Origin: an uncultured Lachnospiraceae bacterium
GTDB lineage: Bacteria > Bacillota > Clostridia > TANB77 > CAG-508
DNA length: 64,000 nt
NCBI GenBank assembly: GCA_964470175.1
Contig: CAYYBL010000001.1
Coordinates: 4,982 to 68,981 of the forward strand
Reading direction: 5' to 3'
Every line of letters starts with the position of its first letter. Within the stretch, counting starts at the first letter, position 1. Shown here piece after piece: positions 10,545 to 46,403 of the stretch. The notes below the pieces were generated by a model. That model saw nothing but the letters and a program-made list of their open reading frames with translations, did no database searches and was not told where the DNA came from. The translations under genes and the position numbers were made by a program.

Positions 10545-10617
10545 AGGTCTCCCCCATATTTTTCGTGACTTCATAGTAATATCCGAATTACATATGTTTC
10601 TTAATTTCTATAGGAAG

Positions 10618-11191: not shown

Positions 11192-12061
11192 CTATTTATT
11201 TCGGGACAATTTTTTATCCAAGTATTCGACCGCGCTTATTGCAGCAACATTTCCTTCTCCTGCGCTTTTTATAGCCTGATATGGTCTTCCAACGATATCA
11301 CCACAAGCATATAAACCTCTTATATTTGTCTCCATTCTTCTATTTACAACCACTTCATCTTCTGCTACCTCAAGACCTGGTACAAGATTTTTTGGACTAA
11401 TTGCATTTCTTAAAATAAATATTCCATCAACTTCATATTCCCCTATGTTTGTTATGAGTTTTTTCACTTTACTTTCTCCTACAATCTCCTTTGGAATCTC
11501 TCTTATGACCTTAATATCTTCATTTAATGTTTTTATATCTTTATACATTGGTATGTAACATATTTGTGATGAAAGGGTTCTTAAATAATTTGCCTCATAT
11601 TCTTCTTTTTGACTAAACCCAATAACAATTATTTTCTTATCTCGATAGAAATTTCCATCACAAGTAGCACAATAACTTACTCCTTTTCCAAGATATTCCT
11701 CTTCTCCTTTATATTGTTTTCCATAATCTATACCTGTTGCTAAAATAACTGTTTCTCCCTCATAAAAGTTATTATCTACTTGTACACTATAATAATCACC
11801 CATGCTATATACTTTACTTACTTTTCCTTCTGTTATTTCAATTCCAAGCTGAGTTATATGATTTAAAAAACTCTGATTTAATTCATACCCAGTTATTTCA
11901 GATAAACCCAAGTAATTTTGAAATAAATGAGCTTTTGAAACTTTCTCACTTAAACTTTTTGATCCAATAAGTAGTATATTTTTATTTCTTATTTTTGCAG
12001 TAATGGCTGCTTCAAGTCCTGCAGGACCTGTTCCTATAACAATCATATCATACATTTTCAT
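11192..12061 (-). CDS. Thioredoxin-reductase-like flavoprotein (289 aa) lacking a recognisable NAD(P)H-binding motif
   Basis: GTGPAG FAD motif near the N-terminus, CATC redox-active dithiol (VSYCATCDG) and the C-terminal FAD motif GLYACGD. I moved the start to ATG 12061-12059 (MKMYDMIVIGTGPAG), which follows GGAGAAAAA. The track's longer start (12130) adds a non-homologous extension running into the promoter. Confidence 0.8.
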   Translation of the reverse strand: MKMYDMIVIGTGPAGLEAAITAKIRNKNILLIGSKSLSEKVSKAHLFQNYLGLSEITGYELNQSFLNHITQLGIEITEGKVSKVYSMGDYYSVQVDNNFYEGETVILATGIDYGKQYKGEEEYLGKGVSYCATCDGNFYRDKKIIVIGFSQKEEYEANYLRTLSSQICYIPMYKDIKTLNEDIKVIREIPKEIVGESKVKKLITNIGEYEVDGIFILRNAISPKNLVPGLEVAEDEVVVNRRMETNIRGLYACGDIVGRPYQAIKSAGEGNVAAISAVEYLDKKLSRNK

Positions 12062-12084
12062 TTTTTCTCCAATCTTATAGTTAT

Positions 12085-12114
12085 AGTATAGCAGAACAAA
12101 AGGGGACATGTAAA
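12085..12114 (-). promoter_or_regulatory. Candidate sigma-A promoter of the reductase-thioredoxin operon
   Basis: Minus strand reads TTTACA (12114-12109), an 18-nt spacer, then TATACT (12090-12085), about 25 nt upstream of the ATG at 12061. Confidence 0.5.
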
Positions 12115-12180
12115 GTAAATTTGTTTGCAATGCTGGCCGAAGGCCTTATATTATAGGAAGTACTTTGTGCTTCCTATAAC

Positions 12181-12228: not shown

Positions 12229-15200
12229 TTATTTAGTTAATACTTTTTTCTTGATAATCACTACTCCAGCACCAACTATAACAAGTCCTGCAGCTATAAC
12301 TACTAGAGCTTGAGAAATTATTTTGCCTTCCTTATCAGTCAAGCCATTTGGTGGTGAAAATGTGATAAGTTCTGTACTACTTGTATCTCTTTCAGCAACA
12401 GATTGTTCAAATTCTCCATATTTTGGATTTGTGTTACCTTGTGTTATCGTAATATCTCTTCTTCCTACAGTATTTTCCATTTTTACAACCTCTGCTATAT
12501 TATCAAATGATAAATTATTTGCATCTTTACTTGAAGCAACTACCTTTGTTATAGTAATATCAAGTACAGTATAGTTTGCTGTCGTATCTCCAACTCCTTC
12601 TGCTGGCTCAGACATATTATATGTAGTAATTGTACCTTGTTCTAATGTATCACCAGTCATTGGCACTAATTGTTGTTCAAATAGAGCATTAGATAATTGA
12701 TCATAATTATCAATACCATTTTCATTTCTTACAACACTAAGTTCATCCACACTTAGAACAACATTATTTCCTGAATCAGAAATATACACTCTATCATCTT
12801 TATCAAGAAGTTTATTTGTAGCAACAATATCTTTTGATAATAATTGTTCTCCATTTAATCCGTTTCCAGCAAGTTCAAGTACTGATGTGTTTTTCCATGA
12901 ATGATCAACCCTTCTATTATTAGTTGTATCAAATACTGCATCATTGTCAACATAATCAACAATTTGACGTACTCTTGTTGTAACTATTCTTAAAGTTTCC
13001 TTAGTTTTATCATTATATTGTCCATCATAATAATAGCTTCCAAGATATTTTCCTTCTTTTCCACGAATATTATCTTTTCGTGCATCTGCTATAACATCAT
13101 AAAGCGTTTCTCCACTCTTAACATCATCTATAGCAGCTATCCTTTCTGTCGTATAATCTACTTCACCTGCATTTAGAGCTGTAAATCTATAGTTAATCGT
13201 GATCGTTGTACCTTGCAATATTTCATCATCAATATCTACAAATCTAAAGTTTTGAATACCGTTATTATACTTACCTTCATCTTCTCTTATTCTACCATTG
13301 TAGCTTTGATCTTTATCTTCTACTTTTTCGATAGCTTTCATTAATTCATCACCAACAGATCTATCTTTAACCAAAGTAGTATTTGCTATCAAATATTCTT
13401 CTGAATTTGGTAATTTAATTAAAACTTTAGCATCAGAATCTTTACTATCGCCTATTGTATATTCTGTACCAAACTCTGCATCAAATATTGTCTTACCATC
13501 ATTTGTCGTAATCTCGATATCTTTTATTTCTTTATCAAGAATAATATTATTCTTAGGTCTTTCTATTAAACCTGTATTTATGTATTTTACTTCTTCTTTC
13601 CTTTCAGACTCATCTCCATTATATACTGGACAGATACCAACCTTTCTTGTATATGTTGACATTGCATATCCATCATATAATTCACTATGATATCCATTTA
13701 CATAGTTTGCTTCATTGAACATTTCAGAAAGCTCATTTGTAATTGTAGTAGATTTTGCCATCCCTTCTAGTCTTTGTACCTCATCATCTATGGCATATGA
13801 TTTCTTGCTATTCTCTGCTGATTCACCCGGAATATTTACTACCACATTTTCTTTTTTGTCATTATATATATATCCATCCGTATCCTTGTTCATGAAAATT
13901 GTTGCTTTGTAATCTTGTCCATTATATACAGCTGGTGTTTCATTATTTGCATCTTTATCATAGTTTGCTGTAAGTACTTCTGTACTTATTTGATTTCCGC
14001 CGTCTCTTGACTTTGCAGCGTTGAACATTTCACCTTTTTTGTTTAATGCAGTAGGTGCACCTGTATTTTGATCAGTATCAGCAAGAGTTGATTTATCTAT
14101 ACCATACTCTGATTTAACAAAGTAATCTCCGACAGGAATTTTCTTAAAGTTATATTGTCCAACTTTAACAACAGCTGAATCATATGATTCTATAACTTTT
14201 CCATCTTTGTCTTTGTTTACTCTTGACGATTCTGTTGTACTATCAAATCCAACTACATCCTCTACTGTCATTCCACCAAAGCTATTTAGTCCAACATTTG
14301 TAGGCCACAAGAAATCATAATCATTTGTTCCATCACTAAATGTTTCGACAAGTTCCATTGTTAGTCCACCTATTAGTGCTTCGTCATTTTCATCATATAG
14401 ACCATTTCCAACTGATTTTCCTTCTTCTTTGCTATCTTCCCATGCTAGACCAGAAACCACTTTATTTTGATTTTCATCAATCTTTAACTCTAGTACTGGT
14501 GCTGCATAAGTATCGTCCTCATATAATGATCTAAAGTTGAAATCATGTATATTTAGATTTGAAGGAGCTGAATTTCCATCAATCTTACCTGCAGTGCCTG
14601 AATATTCTTTATTATTACTATTAAATGATCTACTATTGTAGTATGTTGAATAACTTGCAATTTCAACTATATTTGATTTTGTACCAGTTTTTATTGCATT
14701 TATTACTGACTCAACTGAACTCTTTTCTGTCTTATATGTTACGTATATATTTATAAAGTCTCCACTTGATAACTTAGCAACATCATCTCCACTTGTACTT
14801 GGATTTGGTGAATCTGGTAGGTTCACTCTATACTTATCATAATACTTACCATCTGATGACAATATATCTTTTTGTACAACATTTGCATTATTCCAAACAA
14901 GATCATCTTGTTTTACGTTACTAATACCTTTTGTTATATATGGTTTTTCAATAGAAATACTTCTATTTTCTTCTTTTCCATTAACCGTTTTTACATCTTG
15001 TGTGAAGCTTCTCTCAACAACCTCCAATGTACTATCACTATAATCATCAATACCATTTATTCTCACATCATATTCTGCTGAATTATTTACGATTTGAATC
15101 TTATATTTTAGATAAACTTGCATTTCAGAATTTTCAATATTTTCTCCCAAAATTTCTTTTATCTTATCATAATCACTACTCATCGAATATATTTCAGATC

Positions 15201-18200
15201 TATAATAATAATCTGATGAATAAAGTCCAATTGGAGCTAAAGTTCTTTCAACTTTAGTTTTATCAATCAAATCTGCCAATTTATTAAATTGGAAAAATTG
15301 AGCATTTTGTTTTGTAACAACTGTAGCAGAATCTAGTACTTTTACTACAGATACATCTACATCTGGCCTATTAATCAATCCTAAATTAATATGTTTACTA
15401 TAACCCAAATATTTATATGTTACTTTTACTCCATCAACTGTCATTTCTCTTGATGGACTATCAGCCCTCAAGTGAACTTGGTTTGATAAAGGATATGCCG
15501 CATGAGCTGACTCCATTCCTATATATGTAGTTGCAGTTACCTTATATTGATCATAAGTATAGCCATTATCATCTGTTTTTATAATAGATTTCAATGAATT
15601 ACTTGAATTATCATTCCTATTAGATGAATCCATATTTCTTGCTTCATATGTCAAATCATATCCACTAGCATTTCCAATTGTAATACCAGATTCATTTAAC
15701 ACTTCTTTTCCTTCAATAGTTTCAAATCTTTCATTTACTTCTTTTCTATTTTTATCAATTGCAACAGAATCATTTGCATATTTAGCAACCATATCTGGGT
15801 ATTCATTTATACTTGAATTGTTTAAATCTGATATGTACATATCTGATTTTTTCTGATATGGATTAGATACATCTCCAACTTTTGCACTTGCCAAATAAGT
15901 TGTAGGCTCATATTTTTGTCCATTATACAAAAAGTCTACTTTATATTTTTCGTAAGCAAGTTCATAAAGAGTAATACCTTCTGCTTTCCAACTACCATCT
16001 TTATCTGTATAAATTGGTTGTGTAATTTCTTCACCCATTTCATCTCTTAAATCAGCTGGGCTACCATCTGCTGAATTTTTGACATAAACTTCAACTTTTT
16101 CTACACCTTCTTCTCCACTATCTAATTTACCATTCTTTCCAGTACCATTTTTATCCCATGGTGTTTCATCTAACCAAACTGTTCCTGAAAGATTTACTGT
16201 AAGAATTAGTTTTTTGTATTTTGGAAGCTCATTTATAACCGTAATTTCAAGCGGATCTCCGAGTTTACTATCAACTAATGTCTGTCCATTATTTGAAATA
16301 CTTGTATTCTTCCATCCAATGTTTGCATCTTTCTTAGAAAGGTCTTCATATACTTCTACTTGTGGTGCTTCATTACCATACCATGTAATTTCATCTGATT
16401 CAAATACACCACAATAATCATCACCATCTAATGTAACCTTAAATGTAAGAGCATCTTTTTCATCTTTAGTGCTATTATATTCGTTGTCATAAAGTTTACC
16501 CTTATATTTAAATTTTGTACCGTATATTTTGTAAGTCACTTCAAATGCTAAATCACTAGGATCTCCAATTAATTTTCTCTCTGCAACAATTTGTTTTCTG
16601 ATCTTAAACTTACCTTTATGTTCTTCGCTTTTATTTATAGCTACTACTGTGATAGCTTTTGCAATTGGATCACTTTCTTTTGAAGCATCTTCTACTACTC
16701 CAGTTGCATTATCTGATATTTCAACTAATTGATATCCCTCTGGAATATTAATCTCTTCAACTTTATATGTTGGAGCATTTTCCCCACTTTTCCATTCAAT
16801 TTTTTTAGTCCAATCCTCATTAACTTTTACGATTGGATTATATACTTCGCTATGACCATCTGCATATGTAATAGTTACTTTAAAAGTAAATTCTTCATCA
16901 CCATCTATTTCACTGCCATTTTCTGCTAATTTTGATACTTTTAAATATCCAAATTTTGGAACTGAATCATTTGTTGCTGTCACTGTAGTAGTAGTGTTCA
17001 TAGTTAAACTTCCACCTGCATTTGTGATACTTCTCTGTTTTGCAATTACAGTTCCATCTTTTTTATCTTTAACAACAACATCACCATTATCATCTGTAGT
17101 AAGTGATGTACCATCAAGATTTACCTCTTCTACTTTATATGTAGGCTCTGTCATACCTTTTTTCCATGTAATATCTGATAAATAATACTCAAAGTTGTTT
17201 CCTTCTACTAGCCAAACATCATCAATTACCATATCTTCATTTACATATGACTCGCCATTATATTCAAATGTACCATTTATCGTTACTTTAAATCTGAATT
17301 TTTGATTCTTTAATGAATCTGAAGTAAGCTCTTTTACAATTTTCAAATTTCCCTTATCTGGTACTGGCTCATCTTTTATTTTATTATGACAATTACCAAC
17401 CTCGACAACTTTATCAACTTCCAATGTTCCTGTATACACATCTGAATCACTTCCATCAAACTTGACAAAATATGTTCCTTCAGGTACATCAACTTCTTTT
17501 ACTGTAAATACTTTATCATCGGTAATCGTAATATCTTTAATTGTCTTTTCCCAAGTATATGTATTTCCGATTCTATTTGTTTTATCAAGCGTAACAGTAT
17601 TCGTTCCCCCATTATATGTAACATCAAATGTAAATACATAACCATCTGCACGTTCTTTCAACTTTTCTTTTAGTTCATCTGAAAGAGTTTCATCTATATC
17701 AAGTGTTTTAATTATTTTAATACTTCCATTATCTGTACCCTTATTAACACATATTACTTTGGCAACAGGTTCATCCTTCAAAACATTTGCAGCATTTTCC
17801 ATTTTATGTTCCTTGCTCTCATCTGTTTCTGTTTCAGATAAATCTTGCTCTATAACTTCATATAGTGGAGCTGTCTTTAATGGATCCCATTCAAATTTCT
17901 TTGATTTCCATGAACCATTACTTGTTTTACTTGCTTGTATTGATACAGTGGCATTTTCACCTCCTTCAATACTTCCATTATTATCTAAATAATATGTTCC
18001 TGGTTCTTTCACTTCACCATCGTAACCAAATTCACTTGTTGCAGTTATTTTAACTGTAAACTTGAATGTCTTAGTTTCATCAATTTCATATGAAGGATCG
18101 ACTTTCTTAACAATCTCTAATGATGAATTTGGTATATCTATCTTATTAAAGCAATTATCAACTTCAACTACTGTATCTGCTTCTAATATTCCTTTATATT

Positions 18201-21200
18201 CATCTGGATTACTTCCATCAAACTTAACAAAATGCGTTCCAGCAGGTACGTCAATCTCTTTTACAGTAAAGTCTTTGTTTGACTCATTTATTTTAATGTG
18301 TTCAATTGTCTTTTCCCATGTATATGTATTTCCAACTCTATTTGCTTTATCAATTTCAACAGTATGTGTCTGTCCATTATATTTAACTTCAAATTTAAAC
18401 TTTAATTCATCAACACGTTTGTCTAAATATTTTTTCTGGAATTTAGAAAGTGTTGTTTCATCAATATCAAGAGATTTCCTTATTTTAATGTCACCATATC
18501 GTACTGTTGGTCCATTAGTACATATTACTCTAACAGCATCTCCTTGTATATCAACCAACGAGCCACTACCATTTTCAATTTCATACTCTTTGCCTTCATC
18601 AGTATCTGTATCAGGTAAATCTAACTCTGTTACTTCATAATCTGGAGATTTTACTTTTACACTCCATCTAAATAAACCAGACTTCCATACACCTATTTCT
18701 TTCTTGCTTGCCTCAATAGCTACATAAGTGTTATTATTTGCATCAGCTTTTTTAACTAAGCCTTTTACACTATCTAAATAGTATTCTCCTGCATCATATG
18801 GAGTGCCATTGTATTCAAATTTCTCACTTGCTGTTATTTTAACTTTAAAATGGAATGTATATATCTTTTCATCATCAACTTCATCAGCTTCATATGACTC
18901 AGCTACCTTCTTTGTAATTTCCAAATATCCTCTATGTGGAGCACCTATTTCATTTTCAAAGAAAATGTTTGTTGATTTTTTTAATGTTTCTCCTTCATCA
19001 TTTTCCTTTACAATTCCTTCAAGGATTGGTGTATCTACTTCATCTTCGCCTTCAATCCAAGCTCTTTTGAAGAAAACACCTTCACTTACTATCTTATTTA
19101 CTATGAATCCACCATCATCCATAAGCTCTTCTACTTTAAATTCAGGTGCAACTTCACCTTTTGAAATATCCCACTTAAAAACTATACCTTGTTCTTTAGA
19201 GTCCCACTGCCATGTCCATGTATCACCTTCTTTTGTTGGATAAACTTTAATTTCTTCATCGAAATATTTAACATCAGTTGGTTTTTCTATTTCATTACCA
19301 CTTGCATCTATTGCCTTTACTCTTTGTGTAACTGTTACATGGAAATTAAATGCTATTTTTTCAATGTCACTTTCGTAATCATCAGCACCTTGAAGAGTTT
19401 TTATTAAGTTTATTTTACCATATTTGTAAGTTCCATTTATTGTGTTATCAATAGTTATATCAAATGTGTTTGTGGTACTTGGCTTTAATCTACCACTTGA
19501 TCCTTCTGATGTATATGTTGGAATATTTAGACTATATCCATCAGGTAAAACTACTTTTGAAGTATCCTCACTTGCTTTATATTCTGGAGCTTTGTCAAAC
19601 TCGCACCACTCAATTTCTTTATCTAATACACATACATTTGAGCCAGGTAGATATCTTCCTTTTCCAGGATTTTCTGGATCTTCTTCAAGTTTTGGTGTTA
19701 TAACTATTCCTTTTTCATATTTTGCCTTATCCTCTTCTTTTACTGGATTACCATCTTCTCCAAGCTCAACATATCCATCTCTTGTAAGTCTGATATAGTG
19801 ATCTCCATATTTTAGATTTTCTCCATATGAAAATCTTCCTTTAATGTCAACATAGAAGTAATAATCTCTATTTCGCAATATTTCCTTTGATTCGTCTTTA
19901 TATACGCCATTTTCTATATCAAAATTATCAACAGAACCTAAAATCTTTTCCAACTTTATTTTAGTTGTTTCTGTATCAATTTTATTTATACATGTATTTG
20001 TTATTTCATTTAATACATTATCATTATTTCTTAAGCTACCAGAAACTTCTGTTTTTCCTGATTCACCATTAAAGCTAACAAAACTTGTTCCTTCTGGTAC
20101 CTTAATTTCCTTTATTTTATATGAATGATCTCTCTTATCAAGTTTATACCATGTATATCTATCAGACACCCACGTAATTTGATATTTAGTTCCATTCTTT
20201 TTGCCATCTCCACCATGAAGTACAACATCTTCCTCTTTATTATCAACCGTTACTTTAAATGTAAAGTCTAAGTCTTTAAGCTTACTTATAACAAAGTCTC
20301 TTGTAGTTTCATCTGCAAATTTAGATAAATCAATTTCCTTTATTAATCTAAGTTTCGCACCTTCTGATTCATCATACTCATTTTCAAAACTTGCACTTGA
20401 AATATTTGTCAAGTTTTTCTCATCAGGCTCTGGTTTAAAATCATTTCCTGTATCTGTTGTAGTTGTACCTATAAGTTCTCCAGATATGATATATCTACCA
20501 TCAGCTGTAAGTTTTGCATCAGAACTAAATCTTGTTTCTCCAGTTTCATCTTTTAATTCTTCTAATTCAAATTTTGGTGCATTTTTTGTATACCATATAA
20601 TTGGTATTTCTTTTCCATTTTCATCAACCATAACATAATGATATTTACCATCTGCTTTTATTGTTATTGGTTTATTCTCTGGATTTGTATATGGCGTATT
20701 TTCTGTATAAGGAACACCATTTATATAAAAATCTCCTGTAATCTTTACATTAAATTTAAATTCTTTATTTTTTATTTGTTCACTTAATTCACTGCGCGCA
20801 CCCTCATCTGCTTCGGGTTCTTTCATTGTTTTTTGAATTCTAAGATATCCATATTTCTTTTCAAGCTTTTGGTTTGTAATGCGGAAGGTGATTCCCTTAT
20901 TTGCCTGAAATTCACCTCTAATAACGAAATCGTCTCCCAAAGGTACTTCTACTTCATTACCATTAGCATCTAAAATATATGCCTTAATTAAACGATATTT
21001 GTCTGCTGATACAGTTTCAGCATCGAATACTTCAGTAATTTCATATGTAGGATTTTTAATTTTACTATCATCTGCTACGGCCTCATATGCCCAAGCAAAA
21101 AACTTTGATCTTGAAGTACGAGCTTTAGGATCTTTTCCAACTGTTACAACAACTGGTGGAAAATTCATATTTTCAAAGTTATTTCTATACACACTTTTAC

Positions 21201-22863
21201 TTGGATCATTTTCATCTATAGAATTTCTATATGCATCATCCTGCACTATACCTTTTACATTAAACTTAAATCTAGCTTCATCTAAATCATCGTTATCTAT
21301 CGTATTTCCATATTCATCAACAACTTTCTTTGTAATCTGAACTTGTGCAATTTTTATATTGAATTGTCTACGTAATGAATATATTTCCTTCCATCTAAAT
21401 GCATCTCCTGCTAAAGCTAATCTTTGTGAGTCAAGTGTACCACCATCAATAGTATCTACCGTAGCATGGGTACCTTGTGTATTATTGTCAGGGTTTGTTT
21501 CGTTATAATGATACACAACTGTTCTTGCTTTCTTCCCGTAATGTCCTTCAAGTTTTTGATATGTACCATCTGCATTAGTATATTCAAAATTTACATTAAA
21601 CTGTAAAATAGATCCTGATCTAGAAACTTTATCTGTTCCCATAATTAAATAGAAAGCTTGATTGCCCTTAGGTGCAATTCTATCTGTCTTAACAAATTCA
21701 TCATGTTCACTGTCATAAAGAACTATTTTGAAATCTTTTTTACGATCTTCTTTGTTACTAAACTCTAATACTAGTGTATTATCATTGTCTAAAACTAATT
21801 CTATACTAGTTATATTTGAAAACTCTGACTTATAATAATCTACTGCAAAAGGACCAACCAAGTATTCCTTCGTATCAGCATTAAATGATACACTTGGTTT
21901 TTTATAATTCTCTCTTCCATTATCTGCAGTATTATAAATATTTCCCTTAGTTACCCACTTTGGTTTAGTCAAATTAAATCCAGCCGTCTTGTATGGTATA
22001 TTTGGATCTCTTCTATATTCATTCCATTCCTCTGTTTTTTCACCTCCAGATAATCTGTTAGCGCTTCCATCTTTTGTAGATTCTGTAGCATGAATTATAT
22101 AATCTTCAAATCTAACTGCTTCTTCATAAAGATCATTTGATCCCATATCACTACCAGTATGTCCAGCAGGTGTCATCCACCATGCCTGTTGTTCTTCAGA
22201 ATAATATCCTTCTGTTGGTGTTTCACCATCTCTAAGTGCTGAAAGAACCCAAGCTTCCTGTGGTATACATCTTAATGAATCTTTTACTGTATATACTGAT
22301 TGAGTTTCTTCATATGAAAGTGTCGTACCATTTGGATAAGTAAAATCATCATCACCATCATAGTCCCATGCATCATAATCTTGAGCAGCAGGCGAATTAG
22401 GATCAAGTACATCATCATCATTTGTCTCATCAGCTCCTTCTGGAACATTTGAATAATCAACTGTAAATGATCCACCACTAGAAATATGTTGTCCTCTTTG
22501 ACAACAAAGTATTTCCGCATAATCTCTTAATTCAACAAAACCAATATTAAGACTATCTCCTTTGGCAGCCTTAAGACCGGGTTTATAGTGCTCAACATTT
22601 TTAGTTCCAACTAATACTGCATCCGATAATTTTCCAGCAGTTTCGGTTTTGGACGAAAGTGCTGAACCATGTTTATCAAATGCTGCTGTTTCTTCATCTT
22701 CATCTGAACCCCACTCACCAAAATCAATACTGTCCTCATAATCGTCCTCTGCTTTTGATATATTTGATAAGTTGATGTTTAATACTACCAATGATAAAAA
22801 GAACAAACTCATCATCAATAATACTTTTATTACTAAATTCTTCATTTTCATATCATTTCTCAT
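12229..22863 (-). CDS. Giant surface protein 1 (3,544 aa): signal peptide, thioester-domain-like head, about 12+ CnaB/SpaA-like stalk modules, SdrD-B-like and DUF11-like C-terminal region, TFSPPNG motif + TM + KKKVLTK tail
   Basis: ORF track 12229..22890. I prefer ATG 22863-22861 (MRNDMKMKNLVIKVLLMMSLFFLSLVV...SKA/EDD), which sits 1 nt after the upstream stop with GGGGGTG 6 nt upstream. Modules repeatedly start G-x-L-x-I-x-K, contain F-x-F-x-V and P-x-Y-x-V-x-E, and end [C/A]-x-N. The SdrD-B-like segment is LSGTVWLDETPWDKNGTGKNGKLDSGEEGVEKVEVYV. Confidence 0.9.
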   Translation of the reverse strand: MRNDMKMKNLVIKVLLMMSLFFLSLVVLNINLSNISKAEDDYEDSIDFGEWGSDEDEETAAFDKHGSALSSKTETAGKLSDAVLVGTKNVEHYKPGLKAAKGDSLNIGFVELRDYAEILCCQRGQHISSGGSFTVDYSNVPEGADETNDDDVLDPNSPAAQDYDAWDYDGDDDFTYPNGTTLSYEETQSVYTVKDSLRCIPQEAWVLSALRDGETPTEGYYSEEQQAWWMTPAGHTGSDMGSNDLYEEAVRFEDYIIHATESTKDGSANRLSGGEKTEEWNEYRRDPNIPYKTAGFNLTKPKWVTKGNIYNTADNGRENYKKPSVSFNADTKEYLVGPFAVDYYKSEFSNITSIELVLDNDNTLVLEFSNKEDRKKDFKIVLYDSEHDEFVKTDRIAPKGNQAFYLIMGTDKVSRSGSILQFNVNFEYTNADGTYQKLEGHYGKKARTVVYHYNETNPDNNTQGTHATVDTIDGGTLDSQRLALAGDAFRWKEIYSLRRQFNIKIAQVQITKKVVDEYGNTIDNDDLDEARFKFNVKGIVQDDAYRNSIDENDPSKSVYRNNFENMNFPPVVVTVGKDPKARTSRSKFFAWAYEAVADDSKIKNPTYEITEVFDAETVSADKYRLIKAYILDANGNEVEVPLGDDFVIRGEFQANKGITFRITNQKLEKKYGYLRIQKTMKEPEADEGARSELSEQIKNKEFKFNVKITGDFYINGVPYTENTPYTNPENKPITIKADGKYHYVMVDENGKEIPIIWYTKNAPKFELEELKDETGETRFSSDAKLTADGRYIISGELIGTTTTDTGNDFKPEPDEKNLTNISSASFENEYDESEGAKLRLIKEIDLSKFADETTRDFVISKLKDLDFTFKVTVDNKEEDVVLHGGDGKKNGTKYQITWVSDRYTWYKLDKRDHSYKIKEIKVPEGTSFVSFNGESGKTEVSGSLRNNDNVLNEITNTCINKIDTETTKIKLEKILGSVDNFDIENGVYKDESKEILRNRDYYFYVDIKGRFSYGENLKYGDHYIRLTRDGYVELGEDGNPVKEEDKAKYEKGIVITPKLEEDPENPGKGRYLPGSNVCVLDKEIEWCEFDKAPEYKASEDTSKVVLPDGYSLNIPTYTSEGSSGRLKPSTTNTFDITIDNTINGTYKYGKINLIKTLQGADDYESDIEKIAFNFHVTVTQRVKAIDASGNEIEKPTDVKYFDEEIKVYPTKEGDTWTWQWDSKEQGIVFKWDISKGEVAPEFKVEELMDDGGFIVNKIVSEGVFFKRAWIEGEDEVDTPILEGIVKENDEGETLKKSTNIFFENEIGAPHRGYLEITKKVAESYEADEVDDEKIYTFHFKVKITASEKFEYNGTPYDAGEYYLDSVKGLVKKADANNNTYVAIEASKKEIGVWKSGLFRWSVKVKSPDYEVTELDLPDTDTDEGKEYEIENGSGSLVDIQGDAVRVICTNGPTVRYGDIKIRKSLDIDETTLSKFQKKYLDKRVDELKFKFEVKYNGQTHTVEIDKANRVGNTYTWEKTIEHIKINESNKDFTVKEIDVPAGTHFVKFDGSNPDEYKGILEADTVVEVDNCFNKIDIPNSSLEIVKKVDPSYEIDETKTFKFTVKITATSEFGYDGEVKEPGTYYLDNNGSIEGGENATVSIQASKTSNGSWKSKKFEWDPLKTAPLYEVIEQDLSETETDESKEHKMENAANVLKDEPVAKVICVNKGTDNGSIKIIKTLDIDETLSDELKEKLKERADGYVFTFDVTYNGGTNTVTLDKTNRIGNTYTWEKTIKDITITDDKVFTVKEVDVPEGTYFVKFDGSDSDVYTGTLEVDKVVEVGNCHNKIKDEPVPDKGNLKIVKELTSDSLKNQKFRFKVTINGTFEYNGESYVNEDMVIDDVWLVEGNNFEYYLSDITWKKGMTEPTYKVEEVNLDGTSLTTDDNGDVVVKDKKDGTVIAKQRSITNAGGSLTMNTTTTVTATNDSVPKFGYLKVSKLAENGSEIDGDEEFTFKVTITYADGHSEVYNPIVKVNEDWTKKIEWKSGENAPTYKVEEINIPEGYQLVEISDNATGVVEDASKESDPIAKAITVVAINKSEEHKGKFKIRKQIVAERKLIGDPSDLAFEVTYKIYGTKFKYKGKLYDNEYNSTKDEKDALTFKVTLDGDDYCGVFESDEITWYGNEAPQVEVYEDLSKKDANIGWKNTSISNNGQTLVDSKLGDPLEITVINELPKYKKLILTVNLSGTVWLDETPWDKNGTGKNGKLDSGEEGVEKVEVYVKNSADGSPADLRDEMGEEITQPIYTDKDGSWKAEGITLYELAYEKYKVDFLYNGQKYEPTTYLASAKVGDVSNPYQKKSDMYISDLNNSSINEYPDMVAKYANDSVAIDKNRKEVNERFETIEGKEVLNESGITIGNASGYDLTYEARNMDSSNRNDNSSNSLKSIIKTDDNGYTYDQYKVTATTYIGMESAHAAYPLSNQVHLRADSPSREMTVDGVKVTYKYLGYSKHINLGLINRPDVDVSVVKVLDSATVVTKQNAQFFQFNKLADLIDKTKVERTLAPIGLYSSDYYYRSEIYSMSSDYDKIKEILGENIENSEMQVYLKYKIQIVNNSAEYDVRINGIDDYSDSTLEVVERSFTQDVKTVNGKEENRSISIEKPYITKGISNVKQDDLVWNNANVVQKDILSSDGKYYDKYRVNLPDSPNPSTSGDDVAKLSSGDFINIYVTYKTEKSSVESVINAIKTGTKSNIVEIASYSTYYNSRSFNSNNKEYSGTAGKIDGNSAPSNLNIHDFNFRSLYEDDTYAAPVLELKIDENQNKVVSGLAWEDSKEEGKSVGNGLYDENDEALIGGLTMELVETFSDGTNDYDFLWPTNVGLNSFGGMTVEDVVGFDSTTESSRVNKDKDGKVIESYDSAVVKVGQYNFKKIPVGDYFVKSEYGIDKSTLADTDQNTGAPTALNKKGEMFNAAKSRDGGNQISTEVLTANYDKDANNETPAVYNGQDYKATIFMNKDTDGYIYNDKKENVVVNIPGESAENSKKSYAIDDEVQRLEGMAKSTTITNELSEMFNEANYVNGYHSELYDGYAMSTYTRKVGICPVYNGDESERKEEVKYINTGLIERPKNNIILDKEIKDIEITTNDGKTIFDAEFGTEYTIGDSKDSDAKVLIKLPNSEEYLIANTTLVKDRSVGDELMKAIEKVEDKDQSYNGRIREDEGKYNNGIQNFRFVDIDDEILQGTTITINYRFTALNAGEVDYTTERIAAIDDVKSGETLYDVIADARKDNIRGKEGKYLGSYYYDGQYNDKTKETLRIVTTRVRQIVDYVDNDAVFDTTNNRRVDHSWKNTSVLELAGNGLNGEQLLSKDIVATNKLLDKDDRVYISDSGNNVVLSVDELSVVRNENGIDNYDQLSNALFEQQLVPMTGDTLEQGTITTYNMSEPAEGVGDTTANYTVLDITITKVVASSKDANNLSFDNIAEVVKMENTVGRRDITITQGNTNPKYGEFEQSVAERDTSSTELITFSPPNGLTDKEGKIISQALVVIAAGLVIVGAGVVIIKKKVLTK
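17375..18935 (-). repeat. Tandem duplication of a two-domain unit (A-B-A'-B', about 260 aa per A-B unit) inside giant 1
   Basis: RGYLEITKKVAESYEADEVDDEKIYTFHFKVKITASEKFEYNG... parallels SSLEIVKKVDPSYEIDETKTFKFTVKITATSEFGYDG.... YGDIKIRKSLDIDETTLSKF...RVGNTYTWEKTIEHIKI...FTVKEIDVPAGTHFVKFDGS parallels NGSIKIIKTLDIDETLSDEL...RIGNTYTWEKTIKDITI...FTVKEVDVPEGTYFVKFDGS. The similarity is also visible in the DNA, by eye. Confidence 0.65.
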
Positions 22864-22864
22864 A

Positions 22865-25800
22865 TTAAACACCCCCTTCCTCTTCTTCAACTTTTCTTTT
22901 ATTCATCACAATCTTTCTGTTTATCACAATTACTGCGAGAACCACCAGCATTGATGTAGTAATAATCATCGATGTATAAATAAGTGTCTCACCTGTCCTT
23001 ATAAGAATAATTATATCTGAACTACTTAAGTCATTTTCTCTTTGTGCTTTATTTGCTGGAGTAGAATTATAATCATCTACACCATATATATTATAGTCTT
23101 CATAAATCTCTGCTTGATTGTTTACAAGTCCTGTATTTTCACCTGTCATATTCTTTTCTAGCACTAACTTAATTACAGTTGATTCTCCCGGTGCTAGGCT
23201 TAGATTTTCTCTAGATGCGTTAAATATAGTATCATTTGAGCCTGTATACCATCCGTTATTTAATGCTAGACTTGAATTAAATTCCATATCTTGTGGTTTA
23301 TAATCTACTATTTTCTTAACAAATCCAGGAATTTCTCCTTTATTTGTAATCTTTATTTCATATTCAACAAGTACTTTTGCACCATCAATATTTTTAGCAG
23401 GTATATCTTCTTTTACAAGTTTTTCACCATTATAATTATTTGTAGAAGTACCCTTTGATGATTGTACTGTAACCTTTGAAATGCTCATGTCTAATTCTAA
23501 GTCAAATTTATCTGCAAGTACAAGTCCTAAATCTATATTTGATACGCTTGAATTGTCTATAACTATTGCATCAGATACAGCTGCTGTTCTTGATGTTCCT
23601 TCTTGTGTAACTTTTTCTGCAATTGCATCAGAATTTGTTGAATCTTGTACTCCATCCTTTTTGTATGTAGTAACACCATATTTTATAGTATCATAATCAT
23701 ATATTACAAAGTATTTTCCGTTTTCTACACCATTTAATATATACATTCCACTACTGTCTGTTGTTACCTTTTTCAATATTTTTCCAGTTTCGCTTTCAAC
23801 AAGACTCACTCTTACATCTCCTACCATTGGAGACTCATTGGTATCTCTCATACCATCTTTATCTGAATCAAGCCATACATATCCTGATATTTTATATGTT
23901 TTATTCACTTTATCAGTATCACTTGATGAAGAAGGTCTTGCAGAATTTGAACTAGATTCCTCTACCTTTTCTTCTCCTTCGCCTTCAGCTAAAACATTTT
24001 TTAATGTGAATGTTAATGAATTTGAAGTAATTTCATCTACATTTTCAGCAGAAACCGTAGCAAAGTTTGTAACAGTTTTTTCTTCTGAAGTATCTCTAAT
24101 GCTAGCATATGTATCAACTATAACCTTAAGTTCCTCTCCTGCTTTTATATTTTCACATACATAGACCTTATTACTTTTTGAATCATTTTCTTTATCCACT
24201 GAACCAACTGTATATTTTACGCCCTTTACTTGAAGTTCATCTGGGAATATATCTTTAAATGCTACTTTTGGTACTGTAACTTTGCTATCATTCTTAATAG
24301 TAAATATAAATCTTATGTTTTCCCCTTCATTAATTGTTGAAGAAACATCTGTATCCGTTGTTTGAGATATTGTAAGTACTGAGTCGCTTATATTTACCTT
24401 ACTTACTTCAGACTCATATACATCAATACCATCTGCCCAAGCTTTTGCACTCGTACCAACCGTATCATATGTCATATTGTTTGAAATATGATCAACCTTA
24501 AATTCATATTCACAACAAACATGCTCATTTGGTTTTAATTCATTTAAATTCCAAGTAATTGTTCTTGTAGCTTCATCATAGCTTCCTTCACTTATTTCTG
24601 TATAATTCTCACCAACATACATACATAGATGTGATGAAACATACTTAAACTCTATAGGAAGCTCCTTAGTAACATTTAAATTTTTAAGAGTTTTATCTGT
24701 AAGATTTTTAACTTGTACTGTATGACCTACTTGATCACCTATTCTATACGTTTTAAAAACCTGACCTCTATCATATTCATTTATCTTTAATTCTGCATTA
24801 TTTACCTTTGTTTTTTCACTTGAAGCATTTATTTCTTTTCCTAAATCTTTTGCGATAGCCTTTGCTGTAGTCTCTACATAACTATCACCAGATGATTTTT
24901 TCATAACTGAAAGATTTAGTTCTGCAGATAATTCTTTTCCAACTTCCAATTCTTCAGACCTTATAACGATCTTGTTATTTTCTAAACTTAAAGAAGCATC
25001 TTCTTTATTTAATGTTGATGTCTCTTCACTAAATAATGTACTTCTTGGTACAGGTATCTCTATATATACCTGTTCTGCATTCTGTTTTCCTACATTTTTA
25101 AGCACAACACTTACTGGAAGATTTTCATACTCTTTTACTTCCTCTTTATTGTTCTTAAGAGAAAGAGTAAGCTCTGGTCCATTTCCTGTAGTAAGCATTG
25201 CTAGGTCTGCGAAGCTTATTTCTGCTTTCTTTAACTCATCTTCATTTGATGTATAATATGTAACAAATTCACCTGCTAAATATTCATGATGAGCTAAATC
25301 TTCAGGAATCTCAAATGTATACTTAAATTTAAGAGTTTCTCCCACAGTAAGCTTAAAGTCATCATTTTCTGGAACAATCATGTATGACTTCATTTCTGAT
25401 AAATCTGAAGGGTTTTCTTCCCAACCATTTTCTCCATTTTGTAAATCTCTTGTTGCTAACGCATTTTTTGAATAATAAACTTTAAAACTTGATGAACTTT
25501 CTTCTGCTAAAACTACTCCTGATAACATTTTTGTATCTATAGTGGTTCTTTCTACGACTTTCTCTCCTGTAATTATATCTACCAAATCTTTTTGAGGTAT
25601 TCTTCCTAGAATACTTACATTTGATATGTCGCTATTTTCATTATTCATTACATATAATATCATTTCTGCATTTTTGCTGCCTGAATGAACCTCTATAAAA
25701 TCAGTCATCTTTCCTTGATTTACAGAAGCTATATATCCATTTTCTTTATATCCCGTTATAGCATTCACGCTTACTACACCAGAAGGAGCAGAATATCTAA

Positions 25801-28429: not shown

Positions 28430-31400
28430 TTATTTTATAAACTTTGAATCTAATACTTTTTTCCTAATAAGTATGATTCCGCCAGCTATTATAACTATTG
28501 ATACTGAAGCTATAGCTAGTACTTGAGTAAGTAAAATATTTGACTTATCTATACCAGTAGGTGGTGTAAATGTAACTATTTCTGTGCTTGATGCTCCTCT
28601 TTTCTTTAATGATTCAAAGAATTCACCATATTTAGGTGTAATAACACCTGTGATATATGTCATATCTCTTCTTCCTACTGTATTTTCGTATTTAACAATC
28701 TCAGCTAATGCATCAAACGCTAAACTGTTTGATTCATCTGAAGATAATGTAGATATTTTTTTCGTTGTAATAATATCAATTGTACCTGATGTCTTGACTT
28801 TTTCATCAGTATTTGGATTCTTTCCAATGATGATATCTTCTGTACCTCCATTTAAGTCTTTATCCAAATACAACATGTTTTCATGGAAAATATTATTGCC
28901 ATACGCTCTAATAGGAACCAATCTAAATTCAAATGCTCCATTTGTAACTGCACCTTTATCATCTGACCATGGTCTATAATTATCATTTAGCTGATCTACT
29001 GAAAGAGCTAGGTTATTTTGAGTATCAGATGTATATTGTCTATTGTTTTTATCAATAATCGTTTTTCCATTTGCTACAGTCTTTCCAATCAACCTCTTTT
29101 CATAATTTCCATTACCATTAAGTTCTTCGATACTCGTATTTTTCCAATATCTATTGTAGTTGCTATTTTCTGATGTATCAAATACGGCATCTGTATCAAC
29201 GTAATCTAATACTTGTCTTACCCTTGTTGTAACAATTGCCTGACCAGCAATACTTCCAGTATAATAATAGTTTCCAATTACTGAGCCAAATTTTAAGTCC
29301 TTCTTTCCATCTACCCTACTTCCACTTATGCTATATATACTATTGTTATCATTTACAGTTTTTGCAGCATTTATTATTGTTGCATATTCTCCAATTGGAC
29401 TTTTTGAGCCAGAAATTTCACTAATTGCCTTTGTAGTATAATCTACCTCGCCCACATTTATCGCTGTAATTTTGTACCCAATAGCTATATATAAACCTTG
29501 TAATAAATCTTCATCGATGTTTATAAATTTAAAGTTTTGAATTCCTTTATTCTTTTCTTTTAGTTGTTCTAATTTATTTTCAGTTTTTCCTATTGCCTGC
29601 ATCAACTCTATTCCAGTTGACTTGTTTTTGTTTAATTCCACAATAACTACTAGATAATTATCAGAATCTAGTTTTGCGACAACAGGAATATCATCACTCG
29701 GTTTGCCTTTCACTTTTTTGTAATTTATATCGTATTCTGCATTAAACAAGACTTTATTATCATTTGTAATAAGTTTTATTGAACTTACTTCATCATCAAG
29801 AACGATCTTGTTTTCAGGTCTTTCTATTAAACCAATATTAACATTTTTTACATTTTGCTTGTTTGCTATAGTTCCCTTTTTCTTCTTTGATGTTGTGTAT
29901 AATCCATCTATCTCATCATCTTTATAGTTTAATATCTTAATTTTAGGTGTATCAGCATACATATCATACTTCTCATGAAGAACTCCATATGCTCCTGAGA
30001 CGTCATTTGCCTCAGACATATCTCCACCATTCTTATTTGTAATGGTTTCAGAGTTTGCCATTACCTCTGCTCTTCTATACTCGTTATCTCTTACATATGA
30101 TTTATTAGCATTTGATCCAGTTTCTGTATTACCTATAAACTCTTCTGTTAAACTTCCACCATACAATGTAGCCTTGAAGTCTTGGCCATTATATATAGTA
30201 GTCGTCTTACCGTATTTTATTTCATCGTAATTTGCAACATTTGAACCTGTTTTTAAATCATATTTTTTATATGGAGTATAAGTATATGTAACATATTTAC
30301 CAAGAGCTAAATCATAGGTTGTCTTTGTAGATGTATTATTTTCAAGTTTTTCCTTCGTATTATATGCTGCTGGTTCTCCAGAAATATCTCTCGTATTTTG
30401 TTGACTATTTTTGTCATTTCCATATCTTGCTCTAACTACATAATTTCCTGAAGGTATATTTTCAAATCGATATGTTCCTACTTCTTGTGTTTCAAGTGAA
30501 GAAACCACTCCTGCAACATTTCCATCATCACCAAGTTTATCTCCAACTTTTCTTTCTATCTTTGTCCTTGCTGTCTCTACAGTACTTCTAAATCCAGTAA
30601 GCTCTTCAAAGGTTTTTCCTCCAAGTGAAGCTAGATTTGTATTTGTATCCCACAAATAATCAAATTCTACACTTTCAGTTTTACTCTTCTTTAGCTGAAC
30701 TTTTTCTACAAGTTCTGTAGTAAGACCTCCTATTACTGCTTCATTATCATTTTTATCATTGTTATACACACCATCTCCAACAGAATCGTCATCTATCTTC
30801 TTGTCTTCAAATGCCAATCCAGATATTGTTTTTTCTGTAGATTCGTTATCTAGATACATATCAAGCACAGCTTTATATGTATCATTTTCGAATCTTGTAT
30901 AGGTATCAAATGATCCAATATTTACATTTGAAGGTGCTGAATTTTTGTCTATCTTTCCGTTTATTTTCCTATTTTTATATGTAGAATAACTATTGATTTC
31001 CACTATATTGTCTTGTTTTCCAAGTCTTATTGCATCTCTTACGCCATCACTATTACCTTTATCAACCTTGTATGTAATAGAATATGTAACATTTTTTCCA
31101 ATATCTATTTCACCTGGATTCTTTATTACATATGTTCTCTTATTATATGTCGTTCCATTTGATGAAATAACGTCTACAGGAGCTGATACAGACGCTGTAT
31201 TTTTATTTAATGAGTTATAAGTTTCAGATGCTTTGTCAAATATCTTAGTCTCTTCTGTTTTTTTATTTTCTATTTTGGTTGTTCCATCACTATCATCAAG
31301 TATTTTGTATATATCTTTTGTAACAGGTATAAGTGAATTACTTGAATAATCATCAATTGCATTTATTTTAACTTTTGAATCAGTTGAATTATTAGTAAGA

Positions 31401-34400
31401 GTGATATTGTATGTCAAATATACATCCATTTCTGAACTATAAATTCCATTTTCCATATTTTCATAGAATTTATATAAATCATCATAATCTTTGTTTTTCT
31501 TATACAAATCTACTCTATAATAGTAATCTGTCTTAAATAAACCAAGTTTATAATGCAAAGTATTTGCTTCTTCGCTTGTAGTAACTCCCATAGTTGCAAA
31601 GCTTTGTCCGTATTTGTATGTCAGTTTTCTACCGTTTGTAATTACGTTTGCTTCTCTTAGAACTTTTTCTGCGCTTATATCAGTTTCTGCCCTATATCTA
31701 ACTCCCAAATTTATATTTCTAGCATATGGATATGCAGCTATATATTTTGATGAGCCTTTTGTTGAATTTTTATTTAAAAGGATAACTGTATCATCAACTG
31801 GGAAGCTTAGTCCAAGTTCTTTTGTAGTAGCACTCATCTTATATTGTTCTTTTATAGTTCCATCAACATTTGTTGTAACTAAAGTTGAAGTAACTCTGTC
31901 TATCTGCTTCATACTTTTAACTTCACCAGTTTCTGCATCGACAGTTCTTGCATAAACATCATTTGCATTTGAAGTATACTCAAGCTCATATTCTCCACCT
32001 TCTCCAATTGCCTTACCTATGGTTTTTCCCATACCATCTATAACTTTATCACCTATAATATTACTAAATTTAGCATTGAATTGATCTCTTGAACTATTAT
32101 ATTGAACTTTATTACTATATGTATTTGCTATATCAATTGCGTGTGAAGAATCTATATAAGTTTCTTTATCAGCGATATTATCTGATTTTGCTGCTTTATA
32201 GTAATCATTTGCATTTGCACGATATCCACTACTATTTGTTTTTGGTATTAAAGACTTTGTCGGTTCATAGGTTTGTCCATCATATACAAATTGTACGTAA
32301 AACTCATTCTTTTTTAAGTCTCCGAGGTGAGCTAGTTGCACTTTAGCGCTCCATTCACCAGCCGCATCTGTATGTATTGGTTGTTCTACAAGTCCACCAT
32401 TTATATCATAAAGTTGAAGTAATTCATTATTACTCATTCTTCTAACATATACTTCAACATTTTGATAAGGATTATCTCTACCTCCTATGTCTCTTATGCC
32501 ATCTTCTGTATCACTTCCCTTATCTCCAGATGGATTATCTATCCATGCATATCCTCCAATATCCATAAGAAGTTCTTGACTTGCTCCTAAGCTAAATCTA
32601 TTATTTATAGTTGATTTTACTGTTACTCCATTTGATAGAGTATATTGTTTATTTGATATGCCATCTATTACCCACCATCCATTACTTTCTTGTGAATGTT
32701 GTGATTCTGTGACAGTTACTACTGGTGCCTTGCTTGTACCATTTCCATCGTACCATTCTATACCTTCAAGAATTGCATTTCCATTTTTGGTATATGTTCT
32801 TCCTCCTACTTTCCATGACCATTCTGTATTCATTCTACCTGGTCTATCTGGATCCGCATTTGTAACCCTTACTTTATACTTTCTTGTATAATTCTTATAC
32901 AAAAGTGAAGTTCCATCACCATCTTCATCATATGAAAAATACGTATCACTTGTAATATCAACTCTCACATTAAATGTAACATCATCTGGTATTCCAGATT
33001 TATCTGATACACAAACTTTTTCAAGTTCAATATTTGTTTTATTAGGTTTTTTAGTTACATTATTAACAATAGCCACTTCTGTAGTATCTTTACTATCTGG
33101 CGTAACTTCTAGAGTTTCCTCACCATCTTCCTTCTTTAAAGCATTTACTTTAAATCTAGTATTCTTTCCATATGAATTATTATCCACTTCGATAGTATAA
33201 TTCTTTTCATCAATTTCCTCTATTTTAAAATATGGTTCCTCATCAAATGAATTCCACTCAATTTTTCCAGAAGTCCATGTTTCATTTGCTTTAATTATTT
33301 GATTTGAAAATGATTTTAACAATTTATCTGATGTTCTGCTTTCGTATACGTCTACATTAAAGTGATATTCTTTTCCAATATTTTCAGCTAGATCTGCCTC
33401 ATCTCCAGTAAGTTTTTTCGTAACTTTTATGTATCCATAATTCTTTTTACTTATATTCTTTTGAATAGCAACCTTTACGGTATTTCTATCAAGTTTTCCT
33501 GAAGCACTGACACTTTCGCCCTTTATAACATTTCCATTTTCATCAATTATTTCCTCTATAGTATATGTCGGACCATCTTTGTTTCTACCATTCCAATCAA
33601 ATCTACCTACATTTTTCGTAATGCCTAAAGTAACATTTTCTATTATAAATTCTTTTGATTGATTTGCTTCAATTTCACCATTTCTATATTTATCAATATA
33701 GTATGTAACTTTGTTATTTGCATTTACTCTTAGCTTGAATGTATATTTTACTTTTGGATCTACCTTACCTATTTTTCTAATCTTTAGATTTGCATATCCT
33801 GGGAATCCTCCTGGACTATCATTTACTGCTCTTACTATTATAGGTTCTCTTTCAACATCTGGATCATTTCTATCTATAAATCCAGTATTATTAGAAATAG
33901 ACGCAAATACTGTTCCACTTGTATTTATCTCATTTACAGAATAGTACAATCTTTCCTCAGTTGGAGGTATTTGTATATCAATCACATTACTCTCCCACGA
34001 AACAATACCTTCACTTGTTGTATGCTTAGAAACTTCTACTGATTGTGTGTATTCTGTATGATCACCTTTAATGTATAATGAGAATATAAATACTGTGCCT
34101 TCATTTAAACTTACCCCACTATCTACAGTTTTTAATATTTTTAAATGTGCTATCTTTTCTTCTGAATTTTCAACTTCATTTTTACAAGTTAAAGTTAATT
34201 GATTACCATCATTTACTTTAAATTCACCATTTAATTCATCTTCTATATTATCAATACTGTTTCCTTTGCCATCTTCTAGTTTAACAAAAACCATACCTTC
34301 TGGCACACTTACCTCTTTTATACTGTAATTTAAACCAGTATGACCAGATAGTATTTCATATCCATCAAGAGTTCTTGACCATCTAACTTCATTACTTGAA

Positions 34401-46402: not shown

Positions 46403-46403
46403 A

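Follow-up and report, generated by a model that had tools for sequence, protein, structure and literature searches.

A candidate class II-like thioester domain at the head of giant surface proteins encoded by an uncultured Lachnospiraceae bacterium

A 64,000 nt stretch of the genome of an uncultured Lachnospiraceae bacterium (contig CAYYBL010000001.1 of assembly GCA_964470175.1, positions 4,982 to 68,981; here 'the window') encodes several giant secreted proteins, three of which, giants 1, 2 and 3, have related N-terminal heads. The question raised by this locus is whether these heads are thioester domains (TEDs), in which a cysteine and a glutamine side chain form an internal bond able to react with a ligand. 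To our knowledge, thioester adhesins are the only bacterial proteins known to bond covalently to host molecules, and a second use has been found for them in protein ligation. A preliminary description, made from the sequence of the window, proposed that the head of giant 1 is such a domain, that its cysteine pairs with the glutamine of a Q-x-A-W-W motif, and that giant 1 is the only covalent 'harpoon' among the paralogues. The motifs themselves were confirmed and the interpretation was supported in part: with some reservation, we favour the view that the giant 1 head (residues ~85-505) is a very divergent class II-like TED that forms a thioester, but the bond would most likely involve a different glutamine. 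The window has a G+C content of ~30%, and every large gene in it is encoded on the minus strand. The parts of giant 1 are as follows.

12229..22863, minus strand: giant 1 gene, 3544 aa, with a signal peptide, TED-like head, long modular stalk and sorting-like C-terminus
22750..22863, minus strand: signal peptide, approximately residues 1-38, read off the sequence; an acidic low-complexity linker comes next
21349..22611, minus strand: TED-like head, residues 85-505 (AlphaFold mean confidence (pLDDT) 77, predicted template modelling score (pTM) 0.73; 212 bits with the family hidden Markov model (HMM))
22492..22512, minus strand: cysteine motif ILCCQRG in a predicted beta-strand; Cys120, the proposed thioester cysteine, is nt 22504-22506
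22177..22194, minus strand: EQQAWW, on the second of three central helices, counterpart of the TQxxΦW motif
21505..22032, minus strand: large beta-sandwich, approximately residues 278-453, between the helix bundle and the glutamine hairpin
21415..21429, minus strand: SQRLA in the terminal long beta-hairpin; Gln480, the proposed thioester glutamine, is nt 21424-21426
12364..21351, minus strand: stalk of repeated modules
12253..12360, minus strand: C-terminal sorting-like signal, comprising FSPPNG, a hydrophobic helix and a KKK tail

Conserved motifs of the head

The motifs originally reported in giant 1 are all present. AEILCCQRGQ occupies residues 116-125, with Cys120 and Cys121 encoded by nt 22501-22506; residues 220-232 read YYSEEQQAWWMTP, in which Gln225 and Gln226 are encoded by nt 22186-22191, giving the claimed spacing of 105 aa between cysteine and glutamine. 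The segment described as helix-like, QEAWVLSALRDGE (residues 202-214), is indeed predicted to be helical.

Relatives of these heads are rare and carry almost no annotation. A word-indexed protein search was nearly blind to the family, returning one or two matches, among them P0001, which is 71% identical and has LCCERGQ and EQQAWW. When 1.84 billion representatives were searched exhaustively by HMM, with the three heads and P0001 as the query, 41 relatives were found (~40 clusters at 50% identity), mostly very long proteins or fragments of such proteins, and those that are named are labelled only 'hypothetical protein [Clostridia bacterium]'. A genome scan added one locus in a metagenome-assembled genome (MAG) of an uncultured member of the Clostridia, and a metagenome scan, with a five-sequence alignment as the query, added a further 28 loci, several of them in human-gut assemblies.

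In an alignment of 32 heads, the residues that are invariant or nearly so are Cys120, Gly124, Gln225, Ala227 and Trp229 (giant 1 numbering), and a glutamine in the terminal hairpin is likewise among the best-conserved positions. The cysteine, the helix glutamine and the terminal glutamine are present in 26 of 26 complete heads from the 28 metagenome loci. The cysteine lies in a motif of the form [ILV][LF]-C-x-x-x-G, and is followed by three conserved helical segments: ATPxEAYILAEM, Y-x-x-V-Q-x-A-W-W-x-T-x-A-G and N-x-L-x-x-E-A-x-x-F-E-x-Y-I. Beyond these, a large beta-rich region contains YLIGPFxIDY, FAGI, NExFYI and FKYMNAxG, and a terminal motif, [S/A]-Q-x-L-[A/G]...R-W-Y-E, directly precedes the first stalk module; the giant 1 version is DSQRLALAGDAFRWKE, which includes Gln480, and the [SA]Q.L[AG] portion is conserved in nearly all complete heads. 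Hence the motifs are not chance occurrences: they are the positions most strongly conserved in a rare family that lacks annotation, whose clusters and metagenome loci all belong to giant proteins of the Clostridia type.

This pattern of conservation bears on two other roles for the cysteine. Were Cys120 a catalytic nucleophile, as in cysteine proteases, transglutaminases or sortase-like enzymes, the conserved glycine of C-x-x-x-G would be accommodated; however, a hydrolase or transglutaminase is unlikely because no histidine, aspartate or asparagine is conserved alongside the cysteine, no peptidase family was matched in Pfam or NCBIfam, and the fold matches described below are TEDs rather than hydrolases. 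We therefore rejected the protease and transglutaminase candidates, and regard an enzymatic role as scarcely credible. A structural disulfide was also rejected: a second cysteine, either in a CC pair or before the first helix, is found in only a minority of members, and a conserved disulfide is unlikely because the cysteine has no equally conserved cysteine partner.

Two variable features of this part of the head were also recorded. Giant 1 has a semi-conserved cysteine, Cys199 (nt 22267-22269), just before the first helix in the sequence RCIPQEAW, and around ten relatives have an equivalent (ICRPKEAY and similar); it might, for instance, enter a disulfide with Cys120 or Cys121 that competes with the thioester or shields its cysteine. 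Giant 1 and P0001 also share a disordered acidic stretch, EGADETNDDDVLDPNS...DYDGDDD (approximately residues 132-178, window ~22330-22470, pLDDT below 50), in place of which most relatives carry a conserved PS...(F/Y)LT.NDIGKK segment.

Predicted fold and candidate bonding residues

Residues 85-532 of giant 1 were modelled with AlphaFold2 from the 32-sequence alignment. The N-terminal part of the model consists of strands, at the end of one of which lies Cys120, then the disordered acidic insertion and two more strands. Three helices follow, the second carrying EQQAWW, and lead into the large beta-sandwich, inside which both FNLTKPKW and YLVGPF are found. The C-terminal part is a long hairpin with Gln480 in a three-residue turn (block pLDDT 93), and then a long strand running into the stalk; Gln480 precedes the first stalk module by 25 residues. 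The predicted order of elements is that of a class II TED (PMC6194298). A second model, of the compact head of P0007 (from a gene at the MAG locus), which is 26-28% identical to giant 1, was obtained with pLDDT 75.5 and pTM 0.77. In both models the order of secondary structure elements fits the inserted-sandwich layout of class II TEDs, a correspondence that concerns their order and not the threading of the hairpin.

The models were searched with Foldseek against 350,542 PDB chains. The best match of the giant 1 model was the class II TED of Enterococcus faecium TIE86 (6fwy; E 1.6e-3, probability 0.69). All four top matches of the P0007 model were class II TED chains, at E-values of 2e-4 to 4e-3: 6fwy_A and 6fwy_C (E 2-3e-4, probability 0.75-0.84), and 6fwv_A and 6fwv_B of Bacillus anthracis TIE (probability 0.77-0.90). 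The next match was at E 0.14. The proposal of a thioester-adhesin head, the most likely reading, is thus supported by the ranking of fold matches, and by the fit of the cysteine and helix motifs, though not by the sequence models considered below.

The TED fold combines a beta-barrel with a three-helix bundle. In characterised TEDs the bonding cysteine sits on a strand, as part of a [YFL]CΦζ motif, and a C-terminal strand carries the bonding glutamine in a weak ΦQζΦΦ motif (PMC4450167, PMC6194298). A further motif, TQxxΦW (formerly written TQxA(I/V)W), is conserved in most TEDs and is on a central helix, where its glutamine and tryptophan hydrogen-bond to the backbone of the cysteine but are not needed for the bond (PMC4450167, PMC6194298). 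Class II TEDs have in addition a beta-sandwich inserted ahead of a long twisted hairpin, which returns the glutamine to the N-terminal lobe as a slipknot (PMC6194298); this placement of the sandwich is their hallmark. Giant 1 has a counterpart of each motif: L-C120-C-Q fits [YFL]CΦζ and is in a predicted strand; E-Q225-Q-A-W-W229 fits TQxxΦW on the second helix, with the threonine replaced by glutamate or valine; and S-Q480-R-L-A fits ΦQζΦΦ near the end of the domain, at the level of the motif only. By analogy, the bonding pair is most likely Cys120 and Gln480, and Gln225 probably supports the active site instead of bonding.

The pairing first suggested, between Cys120 or Cys121 and Gln225 or Gln226 with giant 1 as the sole reactive paralogue, draws on the near-invariance of Gln225, and proximity is plausible given that the equivalent helix glutamine adjoins the thioester cysteine in known TEDs. 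Against this, that glutamine is dispensable and is not the bond partner in the characterised domains (PMC4450167, PMC6194298), a separate conserved glutamine occupies the canonical C-terminal position, and among the paralogues giant 3 has the helix glutamine without the cysteine while giant 2 has the cysteine without the helix glutamine. We consider this pairing very improbable; most likely the preliminary description chose the right family of motifs but the wrong glutamine as the partner of the cysteine. As the glutamine of the TQXA motif is commonly confused with the bonding glutamine, the distinction also serves as a correction to annotation.

With Cys120 and Gln480 as the preferred pair, the mechanism can be envisaged as follows. 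Once the protein has been secreted and has folded, the Cys120 thiol, on a strand of the N-terminal lobe, would attack the side-chain amide of Gln480, brought into position by the long C-terminal hairpin returning from the inserted sandwich. Ammonia would leave and a buried Cys-Gln thioester would form, with Gln225 and Trp229 of EQQAWW packing on the cysteine and stabilising the site, as TQxxΦW does in known TEDs. A nucleophilic amine of a host or microbial ligand might then attack the thioester, producing an intermolecular isopeptide bond to Gln480.

The two paralogous genes and their heads are as follows.

28430..46402, minus strand: giant 2 gene, 5990 aa
44348..46258, minus strand: giant 2 head, with Cys84 in ILCRQKG (46139-46159) and IAMAWW instead of QxAWW (45821-45838)
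52182..62387, minus strand: giant 3 gene, 3401 aa
61188..62297, minus strand: giant 3 head, degenerate, with leucine in place of the cysteine (SIVLDKY, 62121-62141) and LQKTWW retained (61926-61943)

They were compared using a family HMM built without the genes of the window. Giant 1 matches it with 212 bits over residues 103-529, and Cys120, Gln225 and Gln480 all fall on conserved columns. Giant 2 aligns over the N-terminal lobe and the sandwich; as reported, its cysteine motif is ENILCRQKGG (Cys84, nt 46151-46153) and the site aligned with the helix glutamine reads HIAMAWW, so that the cysteine is kept and the helix glutamine replaced. The alignment resumes past an insertion of ~250 aa, over EPWQQLNAAISGSLWYQ...IQITKK, placing the hairpin glutamine motif at PWQQLN (44438-44455; Gln652/653). 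An alternative candidate, which matches the glutamine-to-tryptophan spacing, is Gln404 in VSQLSG (45182-45199). Giant 3 aligns over residues 141-334 only. It does have LQKTWW and a mature head free of cysteine, as had been noted, the first cysteine after the signal peptide being residue 515, but its hairpin position (NYGSILY, 61296-61316) is also without a glutamine. The claim that the FNL..PKW and YL.GPF motifs are common to all three heads does not extend to giant 3, which reads NIVEPHIEW and YLIGPY. Its close relatives are P0002, nearly identical where the two overlap, and P0008.

The cysteine and the hairpin glutamine have therefore been lost together in giant 3 while the helix glutamine has been kept alone, as would be predicted were Cys120 and Gln480 the functional pair. 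Judged from these alignments, giant 2 is probably also reactive, keeping Cys84 and a hairpin glutamine, and giant 3 is probably a non-covalent or decayed paralogue. Hence the suggestion of a single harpoon does not follow: giant 3 is without both partners, and giant 2 is without only the dispensable helix glutamine. The three genes represent a ready-made experiment on which residues are needed, one head having all the motifs, one being without the helix glutamine and one without the bonding pair.

The insertion in giant 2 (residues ~392-649, window ~44456-45230) occupies the loop that joins the sandwich to the glutamine hairpin and has no Pfam match. The matching loop in P0010, P0016, P0020, P0023 and P0040 contains cysteine-rich inserts resembling zinc knuckles (C..G...C.HG.Y). 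The insert of P0007 includes CGEQ, the thioester motif of complement C3; this is probably a coincidence.

Thioester and non-thioester readings of the family

A number of results weigh against a thioester in the giant 1 head. None of the models PF08341 (TED), PF20610 (TED_2) and TIGR03934 (TQXA), of which the first and last had been put forward as a check, matched the three heads at E<=10 or any of the 32 family members at E<=1. The family profile found no TED among PDB sequences, alignment of the family with a class II TED profile using hhalign gave a probability below 1% with both 3- and 12-sequence profiles, and the scores of the family with a TED HMM were no higher than those of shuffled decoys. 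The Foldseek superpositions are poor globally (template modelling scores of 0.11-0.22, root-mean-square deviations of 11-27 Å), and the E-values marginal, even though a class II TED is the top PDB fold match of the predicted giant 1 structure. Known class II TEDs have a far smaller beta-sandwich, the giants carry an anchor other than LPXTG, and the joint loss of cysteine and hairpin glutamine rests on one lineage (giant 3, P0002 and P0008).

The class II profiles used with hhalign were derived from the gene for TIEpLS20 (L004:6477-8780), a protein that has been studied by experiment, together with relatives on pLS20-type plasmids. The sole alignment returned by hhalign, itself insignificant, placed YQKL of the sandwich on YQRL of the TED, and was rejected, as the position varies in the family (Q/S/K/E/A/T). 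More generally, Pfam and NCBIfam scans of the heads, the whole giants and the 32 family members gave no TED, TQXA or CnaB match, and nothing meaningful among PDB sequences was returned by phmmer and profile searches, whether the query was the head, the family profile, a stalk segment or a profile of the stalk module. However, sequence methods are weak even between accepted class II TEDs, since TIEpLS20 itself clears the Pfam cut-offs by only 1.8 and 1.6 bits, finds no solved TED with phmmer, and, as a 12-sequence profile with its relatives, picks up SaTIE over no more than the N-terminal third and misses both BaTIE and EfmTIE86. The negative sequence result therefore lowers the claim to TED membership but does not remove it.

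The same results could be accounted for by a TED-like or TED-derived fold that forms no thioester, the head being the tip of a non-covalent adhesin or lectin. The conserved cysteine, glutamine and tryptophan pair would then be structural or ligand-binding, for instance as a free thiol for mixed disulfides with mucin. The failure of every TED sequence model, the poor superposition and the persistence of the giant 3 scaffold without its cysteine all accord with this explanation. It is nevertheless hard put to explain why a lone, near-invariant cysteine and a near-invariant glutamine occupy the bonding positions of a TED together with a TQxxΦW-like helix, and lone exposed cysteine residues are rare in secreted Gram-positive proteins. 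We regard it as rather unlikely, though a good deal less so than the alternatives already discussed.

In favouring a thioester, we compared the family with the class II TEDs BaTIE (6FWV), SaTIE (6FX6), EfmTIE86 (6FWY) and TIEpLS20 of plasmid pLS20. In common with these, the head forms the N-terminal end of a secreted surface protein with a stalk, and is predicted to have a cysteine in a [YFL]CΦζ-type strand, a three-helix bundle whose second helix carries Q-x-x-Φ-W, and a beta-sandwich inserted before a long hairpin with a ΦQζΦΦ-type glutamine ~20-25 residues ahead of the stalk. This glutamine precedes the stalk by 25 residues in giant 1; the corresponding distance is 22 residues in EfmTIE86, measured to where the TED construct ends, and ~20-25 in TIEpLS20. 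Unlike the class II TEDs, the family shares no detectable sequence similarity with them; its sandwich is roughly twice as large, with an extra long hairpin; its helix motif is a near-invariant VQxAWWxTxAG; and its cysteine is often doubled (CC) and then followed by x-x-G. Its loops are hot spots for insertion, acidic in giant 1, ~250 aa long in giant 2 and cysteine-rich in relatives, its stalks are at least 10 times longer, and its anchor is TPPTG, not LPXTG.

The class I TEDs (SfbI, FbaB and Cpa of Streptococcus pyogenes; CpTIE/Cpe0147 of Clostridium perfringens) have the same order of motifs, and the covalent 'harpoon' chemistry proposed here is the same as theirs (PMC4450167). They differ from the giant 1 head in having no inserted beta-sandwich and an extra helix, α0, and their cysteine and glutamine are ~130-150 aa apart, compared with 360 aa in giant 1.

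These differences raise the prospect of a third structural class of bacterial TED, missed by every current sequence model. It would be defined by the enlarged sandwich, the invariant VQxAWW helix and the insertion-tolerant loops, and be borne on fibrils of 1,600-6,000 aa in gut and rumen Clostridia; the fibril gene would be translationally coupled to a DUF11/SdrD_B partner, the protein would end in TPPTG, and reactive and 'disarmed' paralogues would occur in one genome. Taken as a whole, this combination is tentative, and to us slightly more doubtful than credible. If the family does represent a branch of thioester adhesins, covalent adhesion has been under-counted in gut Clostridia, the family being invisible to Pfam and NCBIfam, and its members would provide new sequences from which to build better TED models.

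Stalks, anchors and neighbouring genes

The stalks consist of repeated modules of ~130-170 aa, each with an invariant lysine (G-x-L-x-I-x-K), an invariant tryptophan and proline, a near-invariant glutamate (P-x-Y-x-V-x-E) and a conserved asparagine in the last strand. The arrangement of lysine, glutamate and asparagine suggests the isopeptide triad of CnaB-type domains, and resembles that in the CnaB/SpaA-type stalk domains of TIE proteins and pilins; those domains differ in that the present modules are longer, have the invariant tryptophan and proline, and share no sequence match with them. The proposal of an isopeptide-domain stalk therefore has a suggestive residue pattern in its favour, whereas sequence searches of Pfam, NCBIfam and the PDB gave no match to confirm it, nor any to a CnaB model. 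The overall plan, of signal peptide, stalk modules with this pattern and C-terminal sorting-like signal, resembles that of TIE proteins, from which the family departs in its giant stalk without a CnaB model match and in having TPPTG or SPPNG and a transmembrane segment instead of LPXTG.

The C-terminus of the family reads ERDxSATELITFTPPTG, followed by a hydrophobic helix and KKK. The individual motifs of the giants are FSPPNG (in the 12253-12360 region), FTPPTG (28553-28570) and FMPPTG (52320-52337). Substrates of Clostridioides difficile SrtB with (S/P)PXTG are similar in having x-P-x-T-G (here TPPTG, or SPPNG in giant 1), a hydrophobic segment and a basic tail, but not in the proline at X, the upstream ERDxSATELIT box or the spacer that separates motif and helix by ~10-12 residues. 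Among the genes of the window, none for a sortase was seen.

Upstream of the giants are partner genes of ~1,700 aa with DUF11 and SdrD_B domains, here termed N.

between giant 1 and giant 2, minus strand: N1 gene, 1692 aa, with DUF11 and SdrD_B domains
22861..22876, minus strand: N1/giant 1 junction, GGGGGTGTTTAATATG, with the ribosome-binding site inside the final codons of the DUF11/SdrD_B gene upstream, then its TAA stop codon, 1 nt and ATG
between giant 2 and giant 3, minus strand: N2 gene, 1793 aa
beyond giant 3 in window order, minus strand: partial N-like gene

The N/giant junction has a conserved form, GGAGGTGTTTAATATG, in which the final codons of the N gene hold the ribosome-binding site and 1 nt separates stop from start. 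The same junction is found between N2 and giant 2 (46400-46415) and at the MAG locus (9302-9319), and the exact sequence GTGTTTAATATG in 14 of the 28 metagenome loci; at U/giant 3 the sequence is a different one, GGAGGTGTAGAAAATG. This conserved arrangement of ribosome-binding site, stop and start suggests that the N and giant genes form a translationally coupled pair. The N proteins end otherwise than the giants, in x-x-T-G-[DEA] and a transmembrane segment.

The related N/giant pair found by the genome scan is on CANQTX010000005.1 (173-20181), from a rabbit-gut Clostridia MAG. It is flanked by a penicillin-binding protein transpeptidase gene and minC on one side and by spoIIE on the other, and thus belongs to the core genome of a spore-former, with no obvious sign of a mobile element.

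Two further open reading frames lie at the left of the window.

11192-12130, minus strand: open reading frame of 312 aa of the FAD/NAD(P)-binding oxidoreductase family (Pyr_redox_2), between two giant adhesin genes
3..10607, minus strand: fourth giant open reading frame, at least 3535 aa, running past the left edge of the window

The first of these has a TTG start and a Pyr_redox_2 match confined to residues 27-171, and may be truncated. The head of the fourth giant is unlike the others, with a signal peptide followed by cysteine-containing leucine-rich repeats of ~25 residues each, which, judged by eye, resemble the BspA type (LRR_5).

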